Of a stretch of DNA of 41,785 bases, positions 3,088 to 40,924 are shown in pieces (within the stretch, counting starts at the first letter, position 1; each line of letters starts with the position of its first letter). This DNA comes from a plasmid: the sequence record NZ_CP090413.1. One strand, 5' to 3'. Under the pieces are notes generated by a model. That model did no database searches. It was not told the origin of the DNA and was given only the letters and a program-made list of their open reading frames with translations. The translations under genes were made by a program, and so were the position numbers.

Positions 3088-3764
3088 TAGATAAACCCCA
3101 ATATATTATTGTTGCTGGTATTAACGGAGCAGGTAAGAGTACGCTGTACGATACATTTCCCATATTGTTTGATAAAACAAAACGGATTAATGCTGATGAG
3201 ATTTTACGACAAATGGGTGGCGATTGGCATAAAGACAGCGATAATTTAAAAGCCATGCGTGAAGAAATAAAGTAACTACACTATTCCTTAGATAACCGAC
3301 AAAGTATTCATGTAGAAACAACACTTGCTGGAAGAGGTAAGGCTCAACTAAATTTGATTGATAAGGCGCATGAAAATGGCTTTGAAGTGACTTTATTGTA
3401 TGTTGCCCTACGAGATGAAAATTTAGCTATTAAGAGAGTAGAGGATCGGGTACAAAAGGGTGGACATGGTGTGCCATCAGAAATAATCAAAAAACGTTAC
3501 CGGCAATCAAATCATAATTTATCAGCGGTTGCGTTTAAAAGTGACAATGTTTTTATTTATGATAATAGTGAAAAATTTGTTACTGTTTATAAAAGAGAAA
3601 AAGGGCAAATAATCAAGAATGATTTAAGCCATTTCCCTTGGATAAATCAAAATATTAATTGTTCAGAAAAGGTGCAAAATCAGTTAAAAAATTTTGTAGA
3701 TCATAACCCAGAAGTTAAGCTAAAAAATAATCCTGAAAACAAAAACGATCGGCCTAGTTATTAG
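3084..3764 (+). pseudogene. Zeta-toxin family P-loop kinase, interrupted by a single in-frame TAA (3273-3275)
   Basis: ORFs 3084-3275 and 3354-3764 are in the same frame (both start positions divisible by 3). Walker A IIVAGINGAGKST lies in the first part. After the TAA the frame continues LHYSLDNRQSIHVETTLAGRGKAQ...HGVPSEIIKKRYRQ, typical of the zeta/AAA-kinase family. Either a nonsense pseudogene or a sequencing error. Confidence 0.6.
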
Positions 3765-6992: not shown

Positions 6993-7146
6993 TTGTGGTG
7001 CTTGTCGATATAGCTGAGTAGCGCGATTAAAAACGTGCCAAACAGCAACATCAACGAGAGTGTCTGGAAGACGCTCATTGACTGTGAAACCTTCCTGAAG
7101 ATTATTCCATGTTCCCATGGGCCTCACCTCGCAAGGAAAAAGACAG

Positions 7147-8063
7147 GTCAAGTCCAAAATGTTGGTGTAAATTAAATTCCGCGAATTTATCATTTCACAA
7201 GCTTAAGCTTACCGGCTTCTTCTGAGTCGGCATCTTTTTCAATCCCGTGGTAAACGGTCATGTTTAAGTATCGTGGACCATCAGCCCATTTTTCATTCTG
7301 TTCAATCAGTAGTGCCCCATTAGTCGCAAGACACTTAGATCATTCGGGAATATCCGGATCACACGGTCACGACGCCGGATTTCTTGATTAACCTGCTATC
7401 AAAACCGAGCACTTCTCGACGACCGCTAGGGTCGATTCCAATCGCAACGAGTAAGCTATTACTCGTCACAACATGACCATGGTGAACCTTAAATAAAGTT
7501 GCGTCGGCATACGCAAAAGCATACCCTTGCGTAAGGGGACATCGGTTAAAGTCCAGCACTTGGTCGTCCAAATTACTGCATAAAGCCGAGACCGTACTTT
7601 TAGAAAAGGTTGTCCCACATAACTTCTTAGTAATCTCAGCTACTTTACGAGTTGAAACACCTTGGATTACCATTTCCATTAATGCTAAATCAAAAGCCTG
7701 TTCACTACGCTGATAGTGTTTGAACAGTTGCGTTGAAAAATTACCATGATGGAGTTTAGGAACGTGTAGTTAAAGTGTCCCTACTCGTGTGGTAAGCTGA
7801 CAAACTCGATAACCATTCCGTGAATTGGTACGTTCATCCGAACGTTCATAAGCCCTAGCTTTAATCTGCTCAGTCGCTTCGGACTTAAGAATTTCATCAA
7901 GAATCTTGGCCATAATTGATTGCATGGCCTTATCCCGATCACCTAGTAATAGTTCCTTTAATTCGTCATCTTCTAAATTTAATTCAACCTTTGGCATAAT
8001 GAAGTTCCTTTCAGATTTCACAAAGTCCTATTTAGAATTTACACCAATTATACGGACATAACT
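7147..8063 (-). mobile_element. Internally deleted IS256-family element, copy A (approximately 917 bp)
   Basis: Ends ggtcaagtccaaaatgttggtgtaaatt (7147) and ggttatgtccgtataattggtgtaaatt (reverse complement at 8063) are imperfect inverted repeats. Identical to 38162-39080 in opposite orientation. Only the N-terminal third of the transposase remains. Confidence 0.7.
7359..8021 (-). pseudogene. IS256-family transposase remnant (N-terminal approximately 190 aa, in-frame TAA, DDE domain deleted)
   Basis: MKSERNF...NGYRVCQLTTRVGTL* then, same frame, LHVPKLHHGNFSTQLFKRYQRSEQAF...MEMVIQGVSTRKV... Aligns to IS256 Tnp RVGTLELKVPR...FERYQR with the stop replacing Glu. Confidence 0.75.
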
Positions 8064-15585: not shown

Positions 15586-18471
15586 TCAGATAGTAAACCT
15601 GTTTATAACTACTAAACCTAAGCTTAATAGTAACATTACTATTCCAACGAACATCATACCTATTGATGATCTATCACCTGTTTGAGGTAATCTACTTGTT
15701 TTATCGTATGTTTTACCTTGAGTGAAATCTTTTGGTACTACCTTATTTCCATTATTAGGAACTTGAGGTTTCTTAGGCGTTGTCGGATTATGGGTATTAG
15801 TAATATTGTAACCATCAACAGTACTTGTGTACCCCGCAACTGCGTTTTCCGTAACCGTGTAGGTAATCTTCTTGCCATTAGCATAAGCGGCTAGGTTGTC
15901 AAAACTGTACTGCCAGTTATCACTAGCGCTTACCGTCTTGCTTGCAACTTGTTGACCATTGGCCAATAAGTTTACTGTGATTGAACTTGGGCGAATTCCA
16001 TCTTGATTGTTGTTATCGTTCCAAGTCTTGGTGCCAGATACCTTAACAGTGGCAGGAGTGTGGTTGTTAGTTACGTTGTAACCATCAACAGTACTTGTGT
16101 ACCCCGCAACTGCGTTTTCCGTAACCGTGTAGGTAATCTTCTTGCCATTAGCATAAGCGGCTAGGTTGTCAAAACTGTACTGCCAGTTATCACTAGCGCT
16201 TACCGTCTTGCTTGCAACTTGCCGACCGTTAGCCAATAAGTTTACTGTGATTGAACTTGGGCGAATTCCATCTTGATTGTTGTCATCGTTCCAAGTCTTT
16301 GTTCCGGATACCTTAACAGTGGCAGGAGTGTGGTTGTTGGTTACGTTGTAACCATCAACAGTACTTGTGTACCCCGCAACTGCGTCTTCCGTAACTGTGT
16401 AGGTAATCTTCTTACCATTAGCATAAGCAGCTAGGTTGTCAAAACTGTATTGCCAGTTATCACTAGCACTAACCGTCTTGCTTGCAACTTGTTGACCATT
16501 GGCCAATAAGTTTACTGTGATTGAACTTGGGCGGATTCCATCTTGATTGTTGTTATCCTTCCAAGTCTTTGTTCCGGATACCTTAACAGTGGCAGGAGTG
16601 TGGTTGTTGGTTACGTTGTAACCATCAACAGTACTTGTGTACCCCGCAACTGCGTCTTCCGTAACTGTGTAGGTAATCTTCTTACCATTAGCATAAGCAG
16701 CTAGGTTGTCAAAACTATATTGCCAGTTATCACTAGCGCTAACCGTCTTACTTGCGACTTGTTGACCATTGGCCAATAAGTTCACTGTGATTGAACTTGG
16801 GCGGATTCCATCTTGATTGTTGTTATCGTTCCAAGTCTTTGTTCCAGAAACTGAGGTTTTCTCAATCTTATCGATAATTTTAATAACGGCACCTTTTGAA
16901 TCAAAATTTGTAGAAGTTACGATTACCATATCTGCTAATTGATATCCCTTAGGTGCACTGACCTCTTTCAATTGGTAACTATCACGTAACAACCCATAGA
17001 TAGTGCCCTGTCCTGAGGAATCTGTTGTGATAGTTCCTACAACTTCTCCGGTTGACTGTCGAATTACATCAAAGATAGCGCCATGTAATGGATTGCCAGA
17101 TTCATCCACCTTTTTTATTGTTAAACTATAGTTATATCCGTTTGCAGTACCATTTGCCTCTTGATAATATACTGTATTAGTGTACTCGTTCATCTTATGA
17201 TTATTATATAGATAACTTGATGAGTTTTTAATTTGTTCTCCGTTAATCAACTTATGAGAAGGCTTTACCTTATATGTGATAAGGAAACCCTGATTGATAT
17301 TACCAAGATTCACAGAAAAAGATGAGCCATTGAATTCAGGGGTATATTTTTCAGTTACTTCTTTATAGTTAGCCAATGACCAATAGTTATTTTTGTCCTT
17401 AAACCAGGTTCCAGTTGCAATTTTTATGCTTGACTGTTCATAATTAACTCCAGCAGAATTAAGAATATCCTTAATAATAACATTATTCCGTTCAGAATTA
17501 GTTGTGTTTATAATAATACGGTAGCTAAGTTCATTATTATCATAATCCATCCACCCATATTTATAAAAATCAATATTACTATCACCTTTATTAACTTTAT
17601 AGCTTATACCCGTGCTATCGATAGTAACTACATTCCCGTTTATTTTAATTGTTGCAGGAAGTACAGTGTCTTTCTTCACCTTTTCTGTATCAGCCATTAT
17701 TTGCATATTAATGTGGCCGGTAACATCATTATGTTTATCTACATAGTCTGTGTATGTTAAGACCAGCGTCTTTTTTTCTTTATTGATAATTGCACTAGCA
17801 ACCGTAGTCACCCCATCAGGAGCGTAGACATTAAATGATTGATCTCTAGTAAAATCCAACTCATTAGGAAGTGATATTGTCGTATAATCTCCGGATCTTA
17901 CTGAATTAGGAACAGAAAAGTCAAAAGAGAATTCTGTAGTTCCTCCACCTGAGATCTCCTTAGTTGATGATCTCTGATTGGTAATTGTAATATCAACGCT
18001 AGTTCCTTTATTATGTGCAGATGGGGAACTATTATTCTTAGAAATACTATTAACTGATGGACCCTGATTAGTATTAGCCCCACTATTAGAAGTCGAGTAT
18101 TGACTATTACTTATATAATTACGGTCCTCCTGAACTGGCTGATTATTGTCAGTTGGTGCTCTCGGTTGTGCTTCTGTATTAGTAACTTGTTTCTGAGACG
18201 CCTGATCGTCCGAAGAACTAGTATTATCTGTGGTATTACTATTAACGGTACTTATCTGCGGTTCTTCCTGTTGATTAATAACAGTCCCGGACCCCGTACC
18301 GTTCTGAGTAATATTTGTCTTGCTATCAGCATATACGGTCATACCACTATTAGATGATATCCATATTGACCCTAATAACGAAAATAAGACTAGTCCCATC
18401 ATAAATAAAAGTCGACGATACCTAGATTTATTACTCATACTGTTGCCTCCTTCTTTGTTTTCTATGCGCAA
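15586..18471 (-). CDS. LPXTG-anchored surface adhesin (MSCRAMM-like) with four Cna-B-type repeats
   Basis: N-terminal signal peptide (RYRRLLFMMGLVLFSLLGSIWISS), S/T/N-rich linker, Ig-like/collagen-binding-like region, 4 x 90-aa repeats (VSGTKTWNDNNNQDGIRPSSITVNLLANGQQVASKTVSASDNWQYSFDNLAAYANGKKITYTVTE.AVAGYTSTVDGYNVTNNHTPATVK), and C-terminal LPQTGD plus hydrophobic span plus basic tail (sortase motif). Confidence 0.85.
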   Translation of the reverse strand: MRIENKEGGNSMSNKSRYRRLLFMMGLVLFSLLGSIWISSNSGMTVYADSKTNITQNGTGSGTVINQQEEPQISTVNSNTTDNTSSSDDQASQKQVTNTEAQPRAPTDNNQPVQEDRNYISNSQYSTSNSGANTNQGPSVNSISKNNSSPSAHNKGTSVDITITNQRSSTKEISGGGTTEFSFDFSVPNSVRSGDYTTISLPNELDFTRDQSFNVYAPDGVTTVASAIINKEKKTLVLTYTDYVDKHNDVTGHINMQIMADTEKVKKDTVLPATIKINGNVVTIDSTGISYKVNKGDSNIDFYKYGWMDYDNNELSYRIIINTTNSERNNVIIKDILNSAGVNYEQSSIKIATGTWFKDKNNYWSLANYKEVTEKYTPEFNGSSFSVNLGNINQGFLITYKVKPSHKLINGEQIKNSSSYLYNNHKMNEYTNTVYYQEANGTANGYNYSLTIKKVDESGNPLHGAIFDVIRQSTGEVVGTITTDSSGQGTIYGLLRDSYQLKEVSAPKGYQLADMVIVTSTNFDSKGAVIKIIDKIEKTSVSGTKTWNDNNNQDGIRPSSITVNLLANGQQVASKTVSASDNWQYSFDNLAAYANGKKITYTVTEDAVAGYTSTVDGYNVTNNHTPATVKVSGTKTWKDNNNQDGIRPSSITVNLLANGQQVASKTVSASDNWQYSFDNLAAYANGKKITYTVTEDAVAGYTSTVDGYNVTNNHTPATVKVSGTKTWNDDNNQDGIRPSSITVNLLANGRQVASKTVSASDNWQYSFDNLAAYANGKKITYTVTENAVAGYTSTVDGYNVTNNHTPATVKVSGTKTWNDNNNQDGIRPSSITVNLLANGQQVASKTVSASDNWQYSFDNLAAYANGKKITYTVTENAVAGYTSTVDGYNITNTHNPTTPKKPQVPNNGNKVVPKDFTQGKTYDKTSRLPQTGDRSSIGMMFVGIVMLLLSLGLVVINRFTI
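15790..16870 (-). repeat. 4 x 270-bp near-identical tandem repeats (coding, Cna-B units)
   Basis: The anchor string gtaaccatcaacagtacttgtgtaccccgcaactgcg recurs at 15808, 16078, 16348 and 16618 (period exactly 270 bp), with only a few substitutions between units. Confidence 0.85.
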
Positions 18472-27967: not shown

Positions 27968-28552
27968 ATGGCTAAAATCGGTTATGCACGTGTGAGTTCC
28001 AAGGAGCAACATTTAGATCGACAGTTAGCGGCTTTAAAAGACGTTGATAAATTATTTGCGGATAAATTAAGTGGGGCTAACACTAAGCGGCCAGAACTGC
28101 AAAAAATGCTGGCCTATATTCGCGAGGGTGATATTGTCCTGGTCACTGAATTAGATCGCTTAGGCAGAAACAACCAGGATTTAACTAAGATCATGAACAC
28201 CATTCAAAATAAGGGGGCCACCCTAGATGTGTTAAATTTGCCGTCCATGACGGGAATTGCTGATCCTAACTTGCGTCAACTGATGACTAACCTCATCATT
28301 GAACTGTATAAGTATCAGGCGGAAAGCGAACGTAAGCGGATCATCGAACGTCAGCAACAAGGGATTGCCTTAGCTAAGCAGCAGGGTAAATATCATGGGC
28401 GCAAACCCCAATACACCCAAGACGATCCCCGCTTGCAACATGCTTTTAAGCTTTACCAGGCAGGCATGAGTGACATTGATGTGGCTCGAAATACTGGGAT
28501 TAAACGGACGACCTTTATCAGATATCGCAAAAAGTTTAATATAAAAAGATGA
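27968..28552 (+). CDS. Serine recombinase (resolvase/invertase family)
   Basis: MAKIGYARVSSKEQ (catalytic Ser region), DRLGRN motif, and a C-terminal HTH GIKRTTFIRYRKKF. 194 aa, RBS aaaggaga. Confidence 0.85.
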   Translation: MAKIGYARVSSKEQHLDRQLAALKDVDKLFADKLSGANTKRPELQKMLAYIREGDIVLVTELDRLGRNNQDLTKIMNTIQNKGATLDVLNLPSMTGIADPNLRQLMTNLIIELYKYQAESERKRIIERQQQGIALAKQQGKYHGRKPQYTQDDPRLQHAFKLYQAGMSDIDVARNTGIKRTTFIRYRKKFNIKR

Positions 28553-28684
28553 GACTTATATGTCAGTGACGTGTACCCCCAAAATTAAAAACCGTTTTTA
28601 TAAGCAGCAAAACTATTTTGAGAAAATGATGGGAATCATGTTAGAGTGGTATCATTTATTAATCGGAATGCAAACAACTGTGCT
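28303..28684. repeat. Direct repeat copy 1 (3' half of recombinase gene plus about 130 bp downstream)
   Basis: About 93% identical to 33031-33399 apart from a 17-bp indel. Confidence 0.75.
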
Positions 28685-33005: not shown

Positions 33006-33030
33006 ATTAGTTAGACAGAAACAATCAGGA

Positions 33031-33399
33031 CTCTATAAGTATCAGGCCGAAAGTGAACGTAAACGAATCATTGAGCGCCAGCAGCAAGGAATTGCCTTAG
33101 CTAAGCGACAGGGTAAATATCATGGGCGCAAACCCCAATACACCCAAGATGATCCCCGCCTGCAACATGCTTTTAAGCTTTACCAGGCAGGCATGAGTGA
33201 CATTGATGTGACTCGAAATACCGGGATTAAACGGACGACCTTTATCAGATATCGCAAAAAGTTTAATATAAAAAGATGAGACTTATATGTCAGATAAATT
33301 AAAAACCGTTTTTTATGAGCAGCAAAACTATTTTGAGAAAATGATGGGAATCATGTTAGAGTGGTATCATTTATTAATCGGAATGCAAACAACTGTGCT
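33031..33399 (+). pseudogene. Direct repeat copy 2: 5'-truncated recombinase gene relic
   Basis: Encodes ...LYKYQAESERKRIIERQQQGIALAKRQGKYHGRKPQYTQDDPRLQHAFKLYQAGMSDIDVTRNTGIKRTTFIRYRKKFNIKR* with no N-terminal catalytic half. Confidence 0.75.
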
Positions 33400-33619: not shown

Positions 33620-34168
33620 TTATCGAATTGTGGCCCCTAATACGTTTTTAAAATGATTCATCGCCCATTCAGCACCAGCTGGTGAGAACGTGGCCACGGC
33701 TGCTTGTGGAATCACAATGTGGTAATCCAGGTTGTAGGCACTGATTGCGGTGTGGAGGACACAAATATCAGTGCAGACACCAGCAATCCAGACTTCATCA
33801 ATCCACCGTTCCCGCAGGTAATTATCCAAATTGGTGTTTTGGAAGGAGGAGTAACGGTTCTTATTGAATTTGTAGACATGGGAATCGTCATGATGTTGAT
33901 CAAACCAGCTGCCGACTTGGCCGTATAGTTTCTGACCGGTCGTCCCAATAATATTATGGGCCGGATATAGTTTGGTTTCTGGATTGAATGGGTCATTAAG
34001 CCGGTGACCATCAGTGGGAAAGATCACATAATCATGCTGACTTAAGAATTGATCGGCTAACCGCATAATTTCTGGGGCCAACGTCTGCGCTGGCTTGCCA
34101 ACCGTTAGTGATCCCTTATCAGCCACAAAGTCGTTTGTATAGTCAATAATTAAGAGCGCTTTAGCCAT
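33620..34168 (-). CDS. pncA: Nicotinamidase (isochorismatase family)
   Basis: ALLIIDYTNDF, catalytic Cys context VWIAGVCTDICVLHTA, 182 aa. Directly downstream of pncB. Confidence 0.8.
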   Translation of the reverse strand: MAKALLIIDYTNDFVADKGSLTVGKPAQTLAPEIMRLADQFLSQHDYVIFPTDGHRLNDPFNPETKLYPAHNIIGTTGQKLYGQVGSWFDQHHDDSHVYKFNKNRYSSFQNTNLDNYLRERWIDEVWIAGVCTDICVLHTAISAYNLDYHIVIPQAAVATFSPAGAEWAMNHFKNVLGATIR

Positions 34169-34169
34169 C

Positions 34170-35609
34170 TTAATATTCCTCCGTAAATTGAGCTTTAGTA
34201 ATTAACTGTTCTTGCAATTCAGCCAATGTAGCTGTTAAGTAAACTGGGTACCGATCGGGGTTAACTAACCGTTTTGTGGCTTCTGGTAATTCTGCTACTT
34301 GATCCATTGAGAATTGCTGAATCTTAAAGAGATCATTTTTGATTGGGGAAGCATTGGAACCCAGATATTCTTGCATCAATGGCTTAGCATTAAAGTTAGT
34401 CAGAACTTGGCTGGCGTGCGTGACTGCCGAATTAGCATTAACCACTTTCAATGGAGCCGTGATGTGCTCATCAGCCAGGGCAATCACATCGGCGATCGCT
34501 TGATGAAGGTTATCTTGCCGGTAAATCCGGTAAACTTGCTTATTACCAGGTAGGGTGATCTTTTCTCTGCTATCACTAACCTTAATTTTTGGGATCCATT
34601 GATCATTAATCTTTTCTTCGGCGAGCTTATAAACGCCACTTAATACCGGACTGGAGGAACTGGTAATTAAACGTTCCCCAATCCCAAAGTTATCAATTGG
34701 AGCTCCTTCATCCAACAACGATTTAACTACATGCGCATCAAGGGCATTTGAAGCTGTAATCTTTGCCTTGGGGAAGCCAGCATCATCGAGCATCTTCCGG
34801 GCTTTGATGGCTAATTGCGAAATGTCACCGGAATCGATCCGGATCCCGACTGGTTGGTGCCCTTGAGCGCTAACTTGCTTGAAGACCCGAATCGCGTTCG
34901 GCACTCCTGACTTCAAGACATCATAAGTATCAACGAGCAAGGAAACTTTGTCAGGATAAACCTTGGCCCAAGCTTGAAAGGCACTTAATTCATCAGAGAA
35001 GCTTTCGACCCAGGCATGTGCCATTGTGCCGGCCGCGGGAATATTAAATTGACTGGCTGCTTGTAAGTTCGACGTGCTGGTACAACCGCCGATCACCGCG
35101 GCTCGCGCCCCATATGTGGCGGCATCAGGGCCTTGCGCCCGCCGCGCGCCAAATTCCATAATTGGTCGGCCTTGAGCGGCATGGTTGATTTGCCAAGACT
35201 TCGTCGCAATTAATGATTGATGGTTAATGATGTTTAGAATAAAGGTTTCTAACAGCTGGGCTTCAATCAACGGTCCACTAATTGAAATAATTGGTTCCCG
35301 TGGGAAAACAGGGGTTCCTTCTGGTAAAGCCTTAATCGAGCAGTGATTTTTAATCTTGCTCAGGTAATCCAAAAACTCGGGAGTAAATTCATTCAGGGAG
35401 GTCAGGTATTCAATATTCTCCTTAGTGAAATGCCAATTTTGAACTTGTTCTACCACCTGCTGGAGACCAGCGACAATGACAAAACTACCGTTGTCGGGAA
35501 CCCGGCGGTAAAAGACGTCGAAGCGAGCTTGTCGATCATGGGGTAGGGTAGCGTAGTACCCATTGGCCATGGAAAATTCATATAAGTCGGTTAATAGTTG
35601 TAGATTCAT
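34170..35609 (-). CDS. pncB: Nicotinate phosphoribosyltransferase
   Basis: 479 aa. N-terminal LTDLYEFSMANGYY and a central PRTase barrel region typical of NAPRTase. Confidence 0.85.
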   Translation of the reverse strand: MNLQLLTDLYEFSMANGYYATLPHDRQARFDVFYRRVPDNGSFVIVAGLQQVVEQVQNWHFTKENIEYLTSLNEFTPEFLDYLSKIKNHCSIKALPEGTPVFPREPIISISGPLIEAQLLETFILNIINHQSLIATKSWQINHAAQGRPIMEFGARRAQGPDAATYGARAAVIGGCTSTSNLQAASQFNIPAAGTMAHAWVESFSDELSAFQAWAKVYPDKVSLLVDTYDVLKSGVPNAIRVFKQVSAQGHQPVGIRIDSGDISQLAIKARKMLDDAGFPKAKITASNALDAHVVKSLLDEGAPIDNFGIGERLITSSSSPVLSGVYKLAEEKINDQWIPKIKVSDSREKITLPGNKQVYRIYRQDNLHQAIADVIALADEHITAPLKVVNANSAVTHASQVLTNFNAKPLMQEYLGSNASPIKNDLFKIQQFSMDQVAELPEATKRLVNPDRYPVYLTATLAELQEQLITKAQFTEEY

Positions 35610-35724
35610 CTTAAATGCTTCCTTTTAAGTAAAAATTACTTTAATTTGGCTAAAAATAAAAGTATGGTTAACTTTTATTTACGTCTAGTATAAATACTTT
35701 GCAGCAAAATGCAAATGATGCCCT

Positions 35725-36429
35725 TTAGTTAAGTTGGTAGAGCTTTGGTGGCCGCCCAGAATGGTTCAAAGTGGCGGCCCCGACTTCTTTGAAGAGGTGG
35801 TTGTGAGTTTTCTTAAAGTTGGAATTATCAATCTTGTCAATTGTCGTACCTAAGAAAGCCGCAAAGACTTCGCGCGCTTGGCGCAGGGTAAAGGTATTAC
35901 CTAAGATCCGAAGAATTTGGGGTTGATAGTCCAGCTTGTTTTTAATCCGATTAATGGCGGTAGTAATGATTTGAATATGATCAAAGACCAGGTGACCGGC
36001 GGGACTTAGGATAATCTCCTGTTGGTCATGGGTGATCACATAGTTGCCCTGATCTTTATCAAGCACGAACCATTGGGCATCTGTGGCCCCATATCCTGGA
36101 TGCAATTTTGGGGTTGATGGTAAATAGGTCATATAGGCGAGTGCCAGTGCCCGAGTTCCCGTAACCCGCTTGGGATCTGTAAAGGTGGCCAGTTGTTCGG
36201 TTGAATTCATCGGAACTTTCAGGCCAATTTTATCGTCAATTAGACGAATGCAGGCCGCGTCGGCACTCTCTTTACTCCGCAAGAGGGTTTCGGGGAGGGC
36301 CCAATGTCCCTTTAGAGGTTCATCTGCCCGCTTAATCAATAGTAATTGTGGTCGGTGTAATTCAGTATTAAAACTCCAAATGACGTTGGTGATGGTCACC
36401 AATGGTCGGGCAATAATTTCACTATCCAA
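35725..36429 (-). CDS. nrtR: NrtR-like Nudix-related transcriptional regulator of NAD metabolism
   Basis: Nudix-fold N-terminal domain with degenerate Nudix box (KGHWALPETLLRSKESADAACIRLIDDKIGL) plus a C-terminal winged-helix domain. Located upstream of pncB-pncA, as in Lactobacillales/Streptococcus NrtR regulons. Confidence 0.65.
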   Translation of the reverse strand: MDSEIIARPLVTITNVIWSFNTELHRPQLLLIKRADEPLKGHWALPETLLRSKESADAACIRLIDDKIGLKVPMNSTEQLATFTDPKRVTGTRALALAYMTYLPSTPKLHPGYGATDAQWFVLDKDQGNYVITHDQQEIILSPAGHLVFDHIQIITTAINRIKNKLDYQPQILRILGNTFTLRQAREVFAAFLGTTIDKIDNSNFKKTHNHLFKEVGAATLNHSGRPPKLYQLN

Positions 36430-36680
36430 TTGACGCTCCTCCCTTCATAATTGTTAACTCAACTCTATTTTAGCATTTCTCGGCCACTAGTGATTGCCCA
36501 GTTGCTTTGAATCATGTTTGACGAGGATTGCTAAATTTTGAATGGTGATCGACGTCGGCTGGGCTAACCATAAGCAAAAAGTATTCCAGAAAATACCGAC
36601 GGCAATGCGGGTCATATATTCAACTTTGGTATCGTTAGTGACATTGGGTGTATATTAGAAATAATAGGAGGGATTGTATA

Positions 36681-37598
36681 ATGAAAAATAAGAGGTATTT
36701 AAATAAAATCTTATTAACCGCAATACTTGTATTATTTGGGAGTTGCATTTCTGTTAAAGCGGATATAAATTCAAATGAATTAAATGCTAAATTAAACTCA
36801 GAAATAACAACACAAAAAGCGCAACTTGCAAATGGTCAGTTACCTAAAGCAAATACGCATCAGTCTGATGGAAAGACGATAGTAAGTAGTGGAACTATGG
36901 TTTTGACTAATCAAGATCAAAACAAGAATCGTAATTATTTACCATGGATGAGCTTTGCTGCTACGCCAGAAACAGTAACTACCCTTAAATATCATATAGG
37001 GGAAGATTATTATGATGGTAACTTTCGTTTCACATTTTATTTGGATTCAATAGAAGGACCAGCTCCTTATGCGGTTGATGCAGCAATTGTTCTATACACG
37101 GAGCCATCACTACAAGGACCAGTTTCCATAAATAAGACGAATTTGATTAGTAAAGTAGGCAACATAACAACAGGAGCAATCGGTTCTGTGGAAGTTCCCG
37201 CAAAGACAACATTTTGGGCAGCTGGGGGAGAATATGGTGCAGAGTCTACTTCGGGGAATGTTGCTTTTTATCCCATAACTCAAGGACCTATTGAATTACA
37301 AAATAAATTAGCCCAGAATTTCCCAGAATATGTTGATCCAGTCTCGCATAAAGATGCAGAGTCTCCGCTTAGAACAGATTGGACTCGGCTAGGTCAGTCT
37401 CCTAGTTGGAATGGACGCCAAGCTTTTATTAATCGATTTAATGCTACTTATGGTACTCAATCTGCTGATTGGTGGTCTGCTCGACAAATTCATCATATTC
37501 GTCCAAGAATTTATGGTGGTACAGATGATTTTAATAATTTACTCCCTGTTCCCAATGCAAATCATTATTTAATAACAAGTTGGTTTAGAAACTATTAA
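36681..37598 (+). CDS. Secreted polymorphic-toxin-like protein with C-terminal HNH/EndoVII-fold (xHH signature) nuclease domain
   Basis: RBS aggaggg 8 nt before ATG 36681. Sec signal peptide MKNKRYLNKILLTAILVLFGSCISVKA. The C-terminal approximately 70 aa (ADWWSARQIHHIRPRIYGGTDDFNNLLPVPNANHYL) carries the HH...P...GG...N......N.H pattern of GHH/AHH/SHH-type HNH toxin domains. Confidence 0.6.
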   Translation: MKNKRYLNKILLTAILVLFGSCISVKADINSNELNAKLNSEITTQKAQLANGQLPKANTHQSDGKTIVSSGTMVLTNQDQNKNRNYLPWMSFAATPETVTTLKYHIGEDYYDGNFRFTFYLDSIEGPAPYAVDAAIVLYTEPSLQGPVSINKTNLISKVGNITTGAIGSVEVPAKTTFWAAGGEYGAESTSGNVAFYPITQGPIELQNKLAQNFPEYVDPVSHKDAESPLRTDWTRLGQSPSWNGRQAFINRFNATYGTQSADWWSARQIHHIRPRIYGGTDDFNNLLPVPNANHYLITSWFRNY

Positions 37599-37610
37599 GG
37601 TGCTAAATAT

Positions 37611-38114
37611 ATGGAAATAGATTCAATTGTAAATTCTCTCAAAACAATGTCTCAAGTTAGTAACTATAAAATTTATGTTTCTGGATCTTTACCAATGAAT
37701 GTTGGTTTTCGATTAAAAGCTAAAGCAACTCAGGCTGATTTAAAAAAGTTTGATAAAATTAATTACTCTCTTCCCAACGATTATTTAGCCTTTATAAGTC
37801 AAATAAATGGTGCAGAGTTATTTACTGATGGAAAGTATATCCAAAAATGTAAAATCTATTCGATTCAAGAAGTATTACATTGGCGAGAATTTTTAAGAAG
37901 CTCAGGATTTTACCCGGAGTGGGATAAACTTCTCCCAATTCTAGAACTACAAGATATCGGTCAACTAATACTTAATTTGGAACGATATGAAAACCAAGAA
38001 GATTATTTATTATATCCTGATGAATCAAATAAATATTTCCACATTGGCTTTACTGAATGGTTGAATAATTATTTACTAACAAACGGTAGCGAATTTTGGT
38101 ATATGAACTCATAA
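37611..38114 (+). CDS. SMI1/KNR4 (SUKH superfamily) immunity protein
   Basis: 167 aa, 12 nt after the toxin stop. LPNDYLAFISQINGAELF is the hallmark SUKH-1 motif (LP.Y..F....NG). No signal peptide, as expected for a cytoplasmic immunity protein. Confidence 0.7.
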   Translation: MEIDSIVNSLKTMSQVSNYKIYVSGSLPMNVGFRLKAKATQADLKKFDKINYSLPNDYLAFISQINGAELFTDGKYIQKCKIYSIQEVLHWREFLRSSGFYPEWDKLLPILELQDIGQLILNLERYENQEDYLLYPDESNKYFHIGFTEWLNNYLLTNGSEFWYMNS

Positions 38115-38161
38115 GAAATGAAATAAGTAGCAAGCCCTCTCGTACAATACCCCTTAGGGTT

Positions 38162-39080
38162 GGTTATGTCCGTATAATTGGTGTAAATTCTAAATAGGAC
38201 TTTGTGAAATCTGAAAGGAACTTCATTATGCCAAAGGTTGAATTAAATTTAGAAGATGACGAATTAAAGGAACTATTACTAGGTGATCGGGATAAGGCCA
38301 TGCAATCAATTATGGCCAAGATTCTTGATGAAATTCTTAAGTCCGAAGCGACTGAGCAGATTAAAGCTAGGGCTTATGAACGTTCGGATGAACGTACCAA
38401 TTCACGGAATGGTTATCGAGTTTGTCAGCTTACCACACGAGTAGGGACACTTTAACTACACGTTCCTAAACTCCATCATGGTAATTTTTCAACGCAACTG
38501 TTCAAACGCTATCAGCGTAGTGAACAGGCTTTTGATTTAGCATTAATGGAAATGGTAATCCAAGGTGTTTCAACTCGTAAAGTAGCTGAGATTACTAAGA
38601 AGTTATGTGGGACAACCTTTTCTAAAAGTACGGTCTCGGCTTTATGCAGTAATTTGGACGACCAAGTGCTGGACTTTAACCGATGTCCCCTTACGCAAGG
38701 GTATGCTTTTGCGTATGCCGACGCAACTTTATTTAAGGTTCACCATGGTCATGTTGTGACGAGTAATAGCTTACTCGTTGCGATTGGAATCGACCCTAGC
38801 GGTCGTCGAGAAGTGCTCGGTTTTGATAGCAGGTTAATCAAGAAATCCGGCGTCGTGACCGTGTGATCCGGATATTCCCGAATGATCTAAGTGTCTTGCG
38901 ACTAATGGGGGCACTACTGATTGAACAGAATGAAAAATGGGCTGCTGGTCCACGATACTTAAACATGACCGTTTACCACGGAATTGAAAAAGATGCCGAC
39001 TCAGAAGAAGCCGGTAAGCTTAAGCTTGTGAAATGATAAATTCGCGGAATTTAATTTACACCAACATTTTGGACTTGACC
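38162..39080 (+). mobile_element. Internally deleted IS256-family element, copy B (identical to copy A, inverted)
   Basis: ggttatgtccgtataattggtgtaaatt... at 38162 and ...ccaacattttggacttgacc at 39080. The ORF fragments are identical to those of copy A. Confidence 0.7.
38204..38866 (+). pseudogene. IS256-family transposase remnant (same as 7359-8021)
   Basis: Same 83-aa and 106-aa fragments in one frame, separated by TAA at 38453-38455. Confidence 0.75.
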
Positions 39081-39330: not shown

Positions 39331-39630
39331 ATGCCAATTGCTACTACTCAAAGTGATTTCCGTAATCATATTAAAGACTACTTAGATAAAGTTAATGATG
39401 AAAATCAAACAGTACTAATTGCACGTTCTAATCAACGAGCAGCAGCTGTTATCTCACAAGAACAACTCAATACCCTTCTTGAGGCTGTTAATGCTAAAGA
39501 AGATTCACTAGATTATGCTATTGCTAGAGATAAGTTAATCGAAATGCATATCTTACCTGATGATCCTATCGTTGAACCAACTGACGATTATTGGAATAGT
39601 TTTAAGCCAAAGGATAACAGTAACCAATGA
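39331..39630 (+). CDS. Phd/YefM-family antitoxin
   Basis: 99 aa. N-terminal TTQSDFRNHIKDYLDKVNDENQTVLIARSN is the Phd/YefM fold. RBS aaaggag. Confidence 0.7.
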   Translation: MPIATTQSDFRNHIKDYLDKVNDENQTVLIARSNQRAAAVISQEQLNTLLEAVNAKEDSLDYAIARDKLIEMHILPDDPIVEPTDDYWNSFKPKDNSNQ

Positions 39631-39962
39631 GATATCAATATAAACCACGAAAATCGTTTGAACGAAACTTAGCTTATCTTGCACAGCTTGATGTAACAAT
39701 TATTGATGAAGTAAAAGACGCTATTTTTATTCTCCTCGATGGCGACATACTTCCCGATGATTTTCATGATCACGAATTAGAAGGAAACTATATTAGCTAT
39801 CGGAAATTTCATCTTCGTGATACTCCCAAAGGGCAGCAACCAACTGAAATAAATGACATTGTAGTTATCTATAAAGTCAACAATCAAGATTTAGTACTCG
39901 TTGCTGTTAATATTGGTTCTCATAAAAAATTATTCCATGGTCGTTATCATAAGAAGCGTTAA
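39627..39962 (+). CDS. RelE/ParE (YafQ-like) family toxin
   Basis: ATGA overlap with the antitoxin stop. DDFHDHELEGNYISYRKFHL...IVVIYKV matches the RelE/YafQ core (D.HxLxG...R..H.....L.Y). Confidence 0.65.
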   Translation: MRYQYKPRKSFERNLAYLAQLDVTIIDEVKDAIFILLDGDILPDDFHDHELEGNYISYRKFHLRDTPKGQQPTEINDIVVIYKVNNQDLVLVAVNIGSHKKLFHGRYHKKR

Positions 39963-40117
39963 AAGCCGTTGACTAGGGACTAGTCTTGGTAAAATAGCAA
40001 AGTTCTATAAGTAATTCTTTATCAAGCCGGCTAAAATTGTTACGTTAGTTATTTAATAAATTGTTTATTTATTTGTCTGCTAACGATATAATTAAACTAG
40101 ACAAAGGAGGTATCAAG

Positions 40118-40924
40118 ATGAAAATTATTACTTTTACTGCCATCAAGGGTGGTGTCGGTAAAACAACCTTGACTTTAAATTATGGTGATTGGTTAGCCAA
40201 ACATGGCAAGAAGGTTCTATTAATCGATTTAGATCATCAGTGTAATTTAACAACCGTTTTTGAAAAGACACGACGAAACAATACTATCGCTGAAGCATTT
40301 AAAGAAGACGATAATGCTCAAAAAGTAAAAATTGACAGTGTCGGACCAAATCTAGATTTAATCGCCGGTTTTATAGACCTAGATGTTTTGGGAAGTTATC
40401 TAGAAAATAACAGTAACAAAGAAATGATGTTATTCATGTGGTTTAAAAACAACTCCGATTCATTAAACTTAACCGACTATGACTATATCTTAATTGATAC
40501 ACACCCAGATTTTAGTACCATCACTAAAAATGCTATTGCTATCAGTAATTACCTTCTTAGTCCCATCACACCCAGTGAGCATGGCTACAATGCTAAGTTT
40601 GACCTAGAAACACGACTCGAAAAATTCAGAAAATCACTTTTTGATTATCGAACTGGCGAAACTTACGTAGACGCAAAACTTTTCTTTATCGTTAATATGA
40701 TTAGACATAATACAAGTATGTCTCGCGATTTGCTAAAACATATAGAAGGTGATGAAACAGTCGCAACTATAATTCCAGAAAGAGAGCTCTTTAATAAAGC
40801 TACTGCAAGGCACACTTCGATATTTGAATTAGCCAATCATGATAAAGCCGTTTTAAAGCAAAATCAAAAGTTCATAAAAAAAGCTGATCATCTTTTTCAA
40901 GAATTAGCAAGTAAAACCAAGTAA
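40118..40924 (+). CDS. parA: ParA/Soj-family partition ATPase
   Basis: RBS aaaggagg. Deviant Walker A KGGVGKTT at the N-terminus (MKIITFTAIKGGVGKTTLT). The track ORF starts 19 codons earlier, without an RBS. Confidence 0.85.
   Translation: MKIITFTAIKGGVGKTTLTLNYGDWLAKHGKKVLLIDLDHQCNLTTVFEKTRRNNTIAEAFKEDDNAQKVKIDSVGPNLDLIAGFIDLDVLGSYLENNSNKEMMLFMWFKNNSDSLNLTDYDYILIDTHPDFSTITKNAIAISNYLLSPITPSEHGYNAKFDLETRLEKFRKSLFDYRTGETYVDAKLFFIVNMIRHNTSMSRDLLKHIEGDETVATIIPERELFNKATARHTSIFELANHDKAVLKQNQKFIKKADHLFQELASKTK

Follow-up and report, generated by a model that had tools for sequence, protein, structure and literature searches.

In the established polymorphic-toxin framework, linkage of HNH nuclease domains to SUKH proteins and toxins with Sec signals are both familiar (PMC3113570), and Sec-exported polymorphic toxins, including ones of the XHH/HNH DNase type, kill Gram-positive bacteria in experiments (PMC12582261, PMC13460014). 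In the S8-PTS/ABP systems, polymorphic toxins with a Sec signal and a BetaH domain come together with an adjacently encoded, secreted S8 protease, AbpP. BetaH comprises ~120 amino acids (aa), in which seven strands form a sheet around a cationic amphipathic helix at the C-terminal end, and it has a dibasic cleavage site; the protease cleaves it to yield the cationic helix plus toxin, which enters cells by proton motive force (PMC9424270, PMC12582261, PMC13460014). The crossing of the Gram-positive envelope by a protein toxin without an injection machine has so far been addressed experimentally only for this protease-activated ABP family. Here we describe a pair of genes, encoding a putative HNH nuclease toxin and a SUKH protein, in the window, that is, the whole stretch of 41,785 nucleotides (nt) of plasmid DNA that was analysed (record NZ_CP090413.1). 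The pair forms a small, protease-free, two-gene candidate for such a toxin in genetically tractable food and probiotic lactobacilli.

From the sequence, we consider it likely, at a probability of about 70%, that the two genes are a toxin-immunity cassette of the polymorphic-toxin kind, made up of an exported HNH DNase and a SUKH-1 immunity protein. The analysis itself shows how the genes are organised, a conserved signal peptide and an HNH-type motif and fold in the first protein, membership of the second in SUKH, the recurrence of the toxin domain in multiple delivery systems and the adjacency of toxin and immunity genes; export, DNase activity, neutralisation, target-cell entry and the ecological role are what we infer. 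In the mechanism that we propose, the toxin would be made with a Sec signal, exported and cut after Ala27, giving a protein of ~31 kDa composed of a short helical linker, an acidic beta-sandwich and a 100-aa C-terminal DNase domain of the HNH (beta-beta-alpha-metal) fold. The co-transcribed, cytoplasmic SUKH-1 protein would bind the nuclease domain and shield the producer, as well as kin that carry the plasmid, whether the toxin has yet to be exported or comes in from neighbouring cells. Once the toxin is outside, the beta-sandwich would most likely bind a surface component of related Gram-positive cells, whereupon the nuclease domain would enter the cytoplasm and degrade DNA. Plasmid-free competitors would thereby be killed or inhibited, which would favour plasmid retention, and the cassette may in this way contribute to strain competition and plasmid persistence in Ligilactobacillus salivarius.

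The toxin gene occupies 36681-37598 on the plus strand and encodes 305 aa plus a stop codon (TAA, 37596-37598), as read from the program-made list of open reading frames (ORFs) and from its 99.9% identity to plasmids pHN1 and pSF118-44. That list starts the gene at GTG 36648, a coordinate taken over by an initial annotation of this DNA that had been made from its letters alone. We place the credible start at ATG 36681, because a Shine-Dalgarno sequence, AGGAGGG (36666-36672), lies 8 nt upstream and RefSeq uses the same ATG. The remaining layout is as the initial annotation described it: the toxin gene comes first and the immunity gene (37611-38114, plus strand) follows after a gap of exactly 12 nt (37599-37610). 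The immunity gene has its own Shine-Dalgarno sequence, AAGGTG (37597-37602), which overlaps the toxin stop codon. The shortness of the gap suggests that the two genes are co-transcribed.

By inspection, the toxin N-terminus, MKNKRYLNKILLTAILVLFGSCISVKA|D, divides into the n-region (MKNKRYLNK), h-region (ILLTAILVLFG) and c-region (SCISVKA|D) of a Sec signal, so that aa 1-27 (36681-36761) are a predicted signal peptide cut after VKA. A hydrophobic N-terminal segment ending in A and followed by D or N is found in all ten aligned homologues that retain their N-terminus, in agreement with the plain Sec signal noted previously. Cys22 stands in a lipobox-like LFGSC and is conserved in none of the homologues, which makes cleavage by signal peptidase I likelier than lipidation; a lipoprotein reading of LFGSC was rejected, since the Cys is missing from every homologue. 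Downstream of the signal, the AlphaFold2 model and the alignment delimit a variable, poorly conserved linker (aa 28-65, 36762-36875) with one predicted helix at residues 31-50. The linker is followed by an acidic domain (aa 66-204, 36876-37292, isoelectric point (pI) 4.6) predicted as a nine-strand, immunoglobulin-like beta-sandwich, and then by a short non-cationic helix (205-213). Pfam assigns no family to the beta-sandwich, which we presume to be a binding or delivery module, and finds no LXG or WXG100 domain in the toxin; on both points the initial annotation had read the sequence in the same way. An iterated profile recovers this N-terminal domain in 40 of 165 carriers of the toxin domain, a count open to profile drift, and most of the full-length proteins that have it (~260-350 aa) are signal-peptide-like at the N-terminus by a crude test.

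The C-terminal toxin domain spans aa 206-305 (37296-37595), with the HNH beta-beta-alpha core at aa 241-305. The protein ends in QIHHIRPRIYGGTDDFNNLLPVPNANHYLITSWFRNY, and its C-terminal domain holds the motif IHHIRPRIYGGTDDFNNLLPVPNANH. In a family alignment of 12 sequences (A1), conservation extends over ~100 aa, from LQNK...FPEYVDP to the C-terminus, and H271, H272, P275, G279, G280, N286 and H295 are invariant in 12/12 members, which bears out the HH-P-GG-N-N-H-type signature reported before. By prediction, H271 and, on the helix, H295 bind the metal, H272 acts as general base and N286 is the structural Asn. The AlphaFold2 model places these residues as expected for a beta-beta-alpha-metal fold, the fold anticipated by the initial annotation: the HH dyad ends a strand (268-272), a second strand covers 287-291, and a helix (292-304) bears H295. 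The pLDDT over the HNH core is 81-92 in the full-length model and 87-94 in a domain-only model. Thus the HH dyad, structural Asn, helix His and beta-beta-alpha arrangement of the HNH superfamily are all present in the predicted structure. Because the domain is cysteine-free, it would be a zinc-finger-less, otherwise canonical HNH. A profile of the conserved ~100-aa stretch (A2) has its nearest PDB matches in a group II intron maturase HNH (E=7.6e-4) and Cas8-HNH (3e-3), followed by the Rhs toxin 8cm0 (E=0.06) and pyocin AP41 (E=0.56).

We searched this profile exhaustively with HMMER against 1.84 billion cluster representatives and obtained 690 proteins at E<=1e-3, of which 401 reach E<=1e-10, ranging in length from about 100 to 2,660 aa. 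In 158 of the 165 proteins examined, no more than six residues separate the match from the C-terminus. Its N-terminal partners are diverse and include TPS with Fil_haemagg (CdiA type), RHS with DUF6531, RHS with PT-HINT, PT-TG, eCIS_core, WXG100_2, T7SS_signal and PPE-type domains, as well as many signal-peptide-like N-termini. WXG100_2 is present, for example, in P0018, a distant relative of the C-terminal domain. A position at the C-terminal tip of proteins from many delivery systems is the defining pattern of a polymorphic-toxin domain, and as judged by this distribution the C-terminal domain is one, without a dedicated Pfam toxin model that matches it. The family thereby spans carriers of the contact-dependent inhibition (CDI), Rhs, type VII secretion system (T7SS) and extracellular contractile injection system (eCIS) kinds while lacking a curated Pfam toxin model. 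The full-length family has 18 members, and the cluster of the intact allele (P0001) holds 325 member sequences.

The second gene encodes a 167-aa acidic SUKH-1 (SMI1/KNR4) protein with a pI of 5.1. It contains LPNDYLAFISQINGAELF, the motif by which the initial annotation had recognised it, and matches Pfam SMI1_KNR4 (PF09346) at 38.0 bits against a gathering cut-off of 25.4 bits (E=3e-9), over profile positions 2-124 of 125. Sequence relatives of the immunity protein in the PDB were absent at E<=1. Among the 19 distinct loci with sequence downstream of the toxin domain, a SUKH homologue follows directly in 18, the sole exception being a weak Anaerolineae match; such consistency places the pairing beyond chance. 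PF09346 recognises six of eight downstream proteins of related loci at E<=0.01, and the SUKH proteins are acidic (pI 4.4-5.1). Pairings of this kind were seen in Latilactobacillus, Limosilactobacillus, Lactobacillus, Ligilactobacillus aviarius, Lactiplantibacillus, Streptococcus-type elements, Clostridium, Heyndrickxia and Paenibacillus; one locus belongs to an actinobacterial-looking WXG100_2 toxin. In Paenibacillus caui (L021, 6251-7720) two tandem SUKH genes follow one toxin homologue, and in Loigolactobacillus jiayinensis and Enterococcus columbae (L022, L024) just a toxin-tail remnant and a SUKH gene are present; orphan and arrayed SUKH genes are typical of polymorphic toxin loci. In addition, when the same partner loci are compared with the window, immunity identity is 34-37% as against 60-74% for the toxin domain. 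The immunity protein thus diverges much faster than the toxin domain, as fits co-evolving, specificity-determining pairs.

Set beside the described polymorphic toxins and their SUKH partners (PMC3113570; PMC3482391), the cassette shares a C-terminal HNH nuclease common to differing trafficking domains, an adjoining downstream SUKH-1 gene, orphan and tandem immunities, residence on mobile elements and a signal peptide as export route. Unlike them, the window's toxin domain falls outside the curated Pfam toxin-HNH families and its N-terminal domain is undescribed; of the Zhang/Aravind patterns, a toxin domain on differing delivery regions and an N-terminal secretion signal were found, and an N-terminal region with differing toxins was not, among the full-length-family matches. 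With S8-PTS/ABP, the nearest analogue studied by experiment, it has in common a Gram-positive, ~300-aa, Sec-exported toxin with a beta-rich N-terminal domain, a C-terminal nuclease and a cytoplasmic immunity gene downstream. The ABP toxins diffuse and act without contact, the most plausible mode for the window toxin too, and in this respect, as a diffusible, Sec-exported protein, its mode of action may be similar. Compared by the BetaH description only, the two N-terminal domains would differ, BetaH being a sheet wrapped round a helix and the window's a predicted immunoglobulin-like sandwich followed by a short non-cationic helix.

The Rhs2-CT/RhsI2 pair of Serratia marcescens (PDB 8cm0 / 9t38; bioRxiv 10.1101/2025.10.28.685041) is an HNH DNase at an Rhs tip delivered by a type VI secretion system; unlike the window toxin, it is described as an atypical HNH without the canonical helix ligands and forms an EF-Tu complex, and the similarity is weak. 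Colicins E7/E9 and pyocins S/AP41 resemble the window toxin in being diffusible and in carrying a C-terminal cysteine-free HNH DNase (HH...N...H) with tightly linked, often plasmid-borne immunity, whereas neither their immunity fold nor their import domains are shared; the combination of a colicin-type DNase with a four-helix immunity protein of the Im family is thus not what the window pair presents. Bacillus subtilis WapA/WapI and the LXG toxins (YobL/YxiD/YeeF) are likewise Gram-positive polymorphic toxins with nuclease C-termini and adjacent immunities. WapA, which is exported through Sec, is a large wall-anchored Rhs protein acting by contact and the LXG toxins use the T7SS, whereas in the window toxin, which is small, Pfam shows no wall-binding, Rhs or LXG domain. 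Identity with Tox-REHH (bioRxiv 10.64898/2026.09.22.753552) was rejected, that toxin being described as without detectable similarity to known families and as paired with Imm22 immunity; identity with Tde5 (PMC13392607) or with the Bacillota Tde/Ntox15 effectors (PMC13556189) was also considered and rejected.

The toxin gene exists in several altered forms. In one L. salivarius allele (P0002) an in-frame deletion removes aa 60-95 of the linker region. In another (P0003, 27 member sequences), 117 nt, or 39 codons, are deleted in frame between 10-bp direct repeats (tgcagagtct, at 37238-37247 and 37355-37364), which takes out the junction of the N-terminal and toxin domains. Two further copies are frameshifted (L017, L019). 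In addition, a 5'-truncated toxin gene with an intact SUKH gene, corresponding to window positions 37243-38156, occurs at >=99.3% identity on about nine plasmids of lactic acid bacteria (LAB), carried by L. gasseri, L. fermentum, L. paracasei, L. plantarum, L. reuteri and a Lactobacillus sp. (L002 3991-4872, the L. gasseri plasmid NZ_CP141797, and matches H24 and H27-H32). These copies share the breakpoint at 37243, where a new ATG opens a signal-less 121-aa ORF with the entire HNH domain. Such a pair could act as a cytoplasmic, addiction-like toxin-immunity module, or could simply be an orphan immunity on the widespread rep_cluster_707/MOBQ backbone.

A number of results weigh against a functioning exported polymorphic toxin, and we gather them here. 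Against the Pfam HNH model PF01844 the toxin scores 16.9 bits, below the 21.4-bit cut-off; its relatives score 16-20.5 bits, and 18 of 71 wider-family members match at E<=1e-3. Pfam hidden Markov models of the GHH/AHH/SHH class or of other toxin families gave nothing at E<=1 for the toxin and five relatives, Tox-GHH, AHH and Tox-SHH-type families gave nothing at E<=1e-3 among 86 wider-family members, and NCBIfam returned nothing useful for the toxin; apart from the HNH match, the two libraries gave just a spurious IscB match. The initial annotation had assigned the nuclease to the GHH/AHH/SHH class and looked to Pfam for recognition of both proteins. The HNH-type fold and motif stand, as does the above-threshold SUKH match; membership of that class fails, with no such family matching and the HNH hit itself sub-threshold. 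We place the toxin domain nearer to PF01844 than to those derived classes. The N-terminal domain was not found joined to a different toxin, as all 17 full-length-family matches have the same C-terminal domain or are truncated copies, and its profile retrieved only two truncated copies of the same protein from a 5.8-billion-protein set, a weak negative. Thus, while the C-terminal domain varies in its partners, the combination of signal, beta-sandwich and HNH looks fixed. Fold matches of the beta-sandwich are generic only, and no translocation or receptor-binding role could be assigned from them. The toxin domain (pI 9.2, net charge ~+2; family range pI 5.4-10.0) is only mildly basic, unlike the strongly cationic toxins of the ABP systems, whose uptake is believed to be powered by the membrane potential. 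A promoter and terminator scan gave sites no commoner than expected by chance and yielded no convincing promoter, and the best -35/-10 pair would put the transcription start within the Shine-Dalgarno sequence. Moreover, the conserved toxin-immunity unit starts only 42 nt upstream of the ATG, so expression must rely on whatever adjoins it there. Finally, decay is frequent, in the form of in-frame deletions, frameshifts and the spread of the signal-less truncated copy, so selection on the toxin may be weak or episodic.

Given these points, we considered what else the pair could be. It could consist of an extracellular housekeeping nuclease and an intracellular inhibitor, with no entry into target cells: the enzyme would serve to scavenge nutrients, remodel biofilms or evade DNA traps of the host, and the SUKH protein would guard the producer from unexported enzyme, on the model of barstar with barnase and NuiA with NucA. 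A plain Sec signal with neither a recognisable translocation domain nor an accessory protease would suit such an enzyme, as would a beta-sandwich that resembles carbohydrate- or surface-binding modules, generically only, and a toxin domain that is not strongly cationic. We nevertheless regard it as unlikely, because the same 100-aa domain tips CdiA, Rhs, T7SS and eCIS proteins that deliver cargo into other cells, because fast divergence of the immunity relative to the nuclease and tandem and orphan immunity genes are hallmarks of antagonism, and because the genes sit on mobile elements, outside the core genome. Somewhat less probable is a toxin of the ABP or S8-PTS type activated by a serine protease from another source, either the chromosome or the community, in which case proteolysis would free a helix-plus-toxin fragment that crosses the membrane by proton motive force. 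The layout corresponds, with a Sec signal, a ~140-aa beta-rich N-terminal domain, the short helix 205-213, a C-terminal toxin and downstream immunity; the described systems include the XHH/HNH DNase class (PMC9424270, PMC13460014), and many family members have KK in the linker (VSKKDAE). An S8 protease was found neither in the annotation of a near-identical plasmid nor among the remaining large ORFs, nor, with a subtilisin query of limited sensitivity, in the window or in 24 related loci, and the window protein has no dibasic site, cationic amphipathic helix or strongly cationic toxin domain. With the protease and the other tested ABP features absent, and the BetaH fold compared by description only, membership of S8-PTS/ABP is unsupported.

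We hold it very improbable that the pair is a selfish, addiction-like plasmid-stabilisation module for which killing is incidental, or a decaying relic in this plasmid. Phd/YefM-YafQ and ParA as neighbours, the 121-aa HNH remnant kept with an intact SUKH gene on LAB plasmids, and the commonness of deletion and frameshift alleles speak for it. A classical post-segregational killer, however, has no need of the conserved signal peptide, SUKH proteins are not known as labile antitoxins, the spread of the remnant is more simply one disseminated backbone (rep_cluster_707 / MOBQ), and the intact allele is the common one (325 sequences in P0001). An ordinary homing or mobile-element HNH endonuclease unrelated to the downstream gene, as the RefSeq product name and the intron maturase and Cas8-HNH among the nearest PDB matches might imply, is effectively ruled out by architecture and neighbourhood: the protein has a signal peptide, no DNA-binding, intron or intein context was seen, the SUKH partner is conserved, and the domain is common to secreted toxins. 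An exported HNH toxin with its SUKH-1 immunity remains our preferred reading, and in its essentials the initial annotation withstood the computational tests made here.

Both genes already carry correct, generic names in RefSeq, the first being an 'HNH endonuclease signature motif containing protein' and the second an 'SMI1/KNR4 family protein' to which a GO term for cell-wall biogenesis is attached. A plasmid SMI1/KNR4 gene of this kind has likewise been read as having a yeast-type cell-wall function (PMC5570283), and a toxin-immunity cassette would explain such LAB-plasmid genes as misread yeast-like cell-wall genes. To the initial annotation, the design had appeared poorly characterised in lactobacilli. 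The beta-sandwich domain is indeed undescribed; the pair itself, however, stands in RefSeq, and Sec-exported Gram-positive polymorphic toxins of the S8-PTS/ABP systems have since been studied by experiment (PMC9424270, PMC12582261), which puts its novelty below that earlier estimate. More tentatively, proteins that combine signal peptide, beta-sandwich and HNH domain (which make up at least 40 clusters at the 50% identity level, most of them apparently of Bacillota origin) could be a second, protease-independent class of Sec-exported, diffusible nuclease toxins with the beta-sandwich as receptor-binding or entry module, a proposal that we think more apt to fail than to hold. Were it true, the copy in L. 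salivarius, found in the well-studied probiotics UCC118 and CECT 5713, would be an overlooked nuclease bacteriocin of lactobacilli, large and heat-labile.

The region matches, at 99.6-99.9% identity, mobilisable L. salivarius plasmids of ~44-50 kb, namely pHN1 (CECT 5713), pSF118-44 (UCC118) and a plasmid of strain Ren. The conserved unit runs from ~36639 to 38156. Exactly at its left boundary, pHN1, pSF118-44 and the Ren plasmid have a 1.25-kb insertion, composed of a TetR-family remnant and an IS256 remnant, and homology to two other plasmids begins at the same point (compare L001 2012-3480). To the right, the cassette ends 49 nt before a degenerate IS256-family remnant (38163-39080, plus strand), which has an inverted twin at 7146-8062. 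Both are ~920-nt, frameshifted Transposase_mut fragments, 99-100% identical, and they flank a 30-kb segment, so that the module does lie at the edge of IS256-bounded cargo, as had been proposed. Recombination between the inverted remnants could flip the cargo segment between them.

In a metagenomic relative (L008 4026-5900; also L009 and L010), the toxin gene directly follows a gene for a GH25 and LysM muramidase, and both belong to a small element that also encodes a rolling-circle Rep, SSB and a tyrosine integrase; with a wall hydrolase as its neighbour, the toxin might cross peptidoglycan more readily. Immediately upstream of the cassette in the window, on the minus strand, is an NAD-salvage cluster (33620-36429) of a nicotinamidase-like isochorismatase (33620-34168), a nicotinate phosphoribosyltransferase (34170-35609) and an NrtR-type Nudix regulator (35725-36429). 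On the L. gasseri plasmid, the gene that comes after SUKH encodes a PnuC transporter. Plasmid-maintenance or toxin-type genes around the cassette are Phd/YefM-YafQ (39331-39962) and ParA (40061-40924), and the window also encodes a Zeta-toxin fragment (3354-3764) and a Fic-domain protein (1512-2264). Additionally, a minus-strand gene at 15586-18471 encodes a 961-aa LPXTG-anchored Cna_B/SpaA-type adhesin and contains four tandem copies of a 270-nt repeat, with 84-93% identity to the first. A 264-nt direct repeat with 94% identity is present at 28303-28566 and 33030-33293, 4.7 kb apart.

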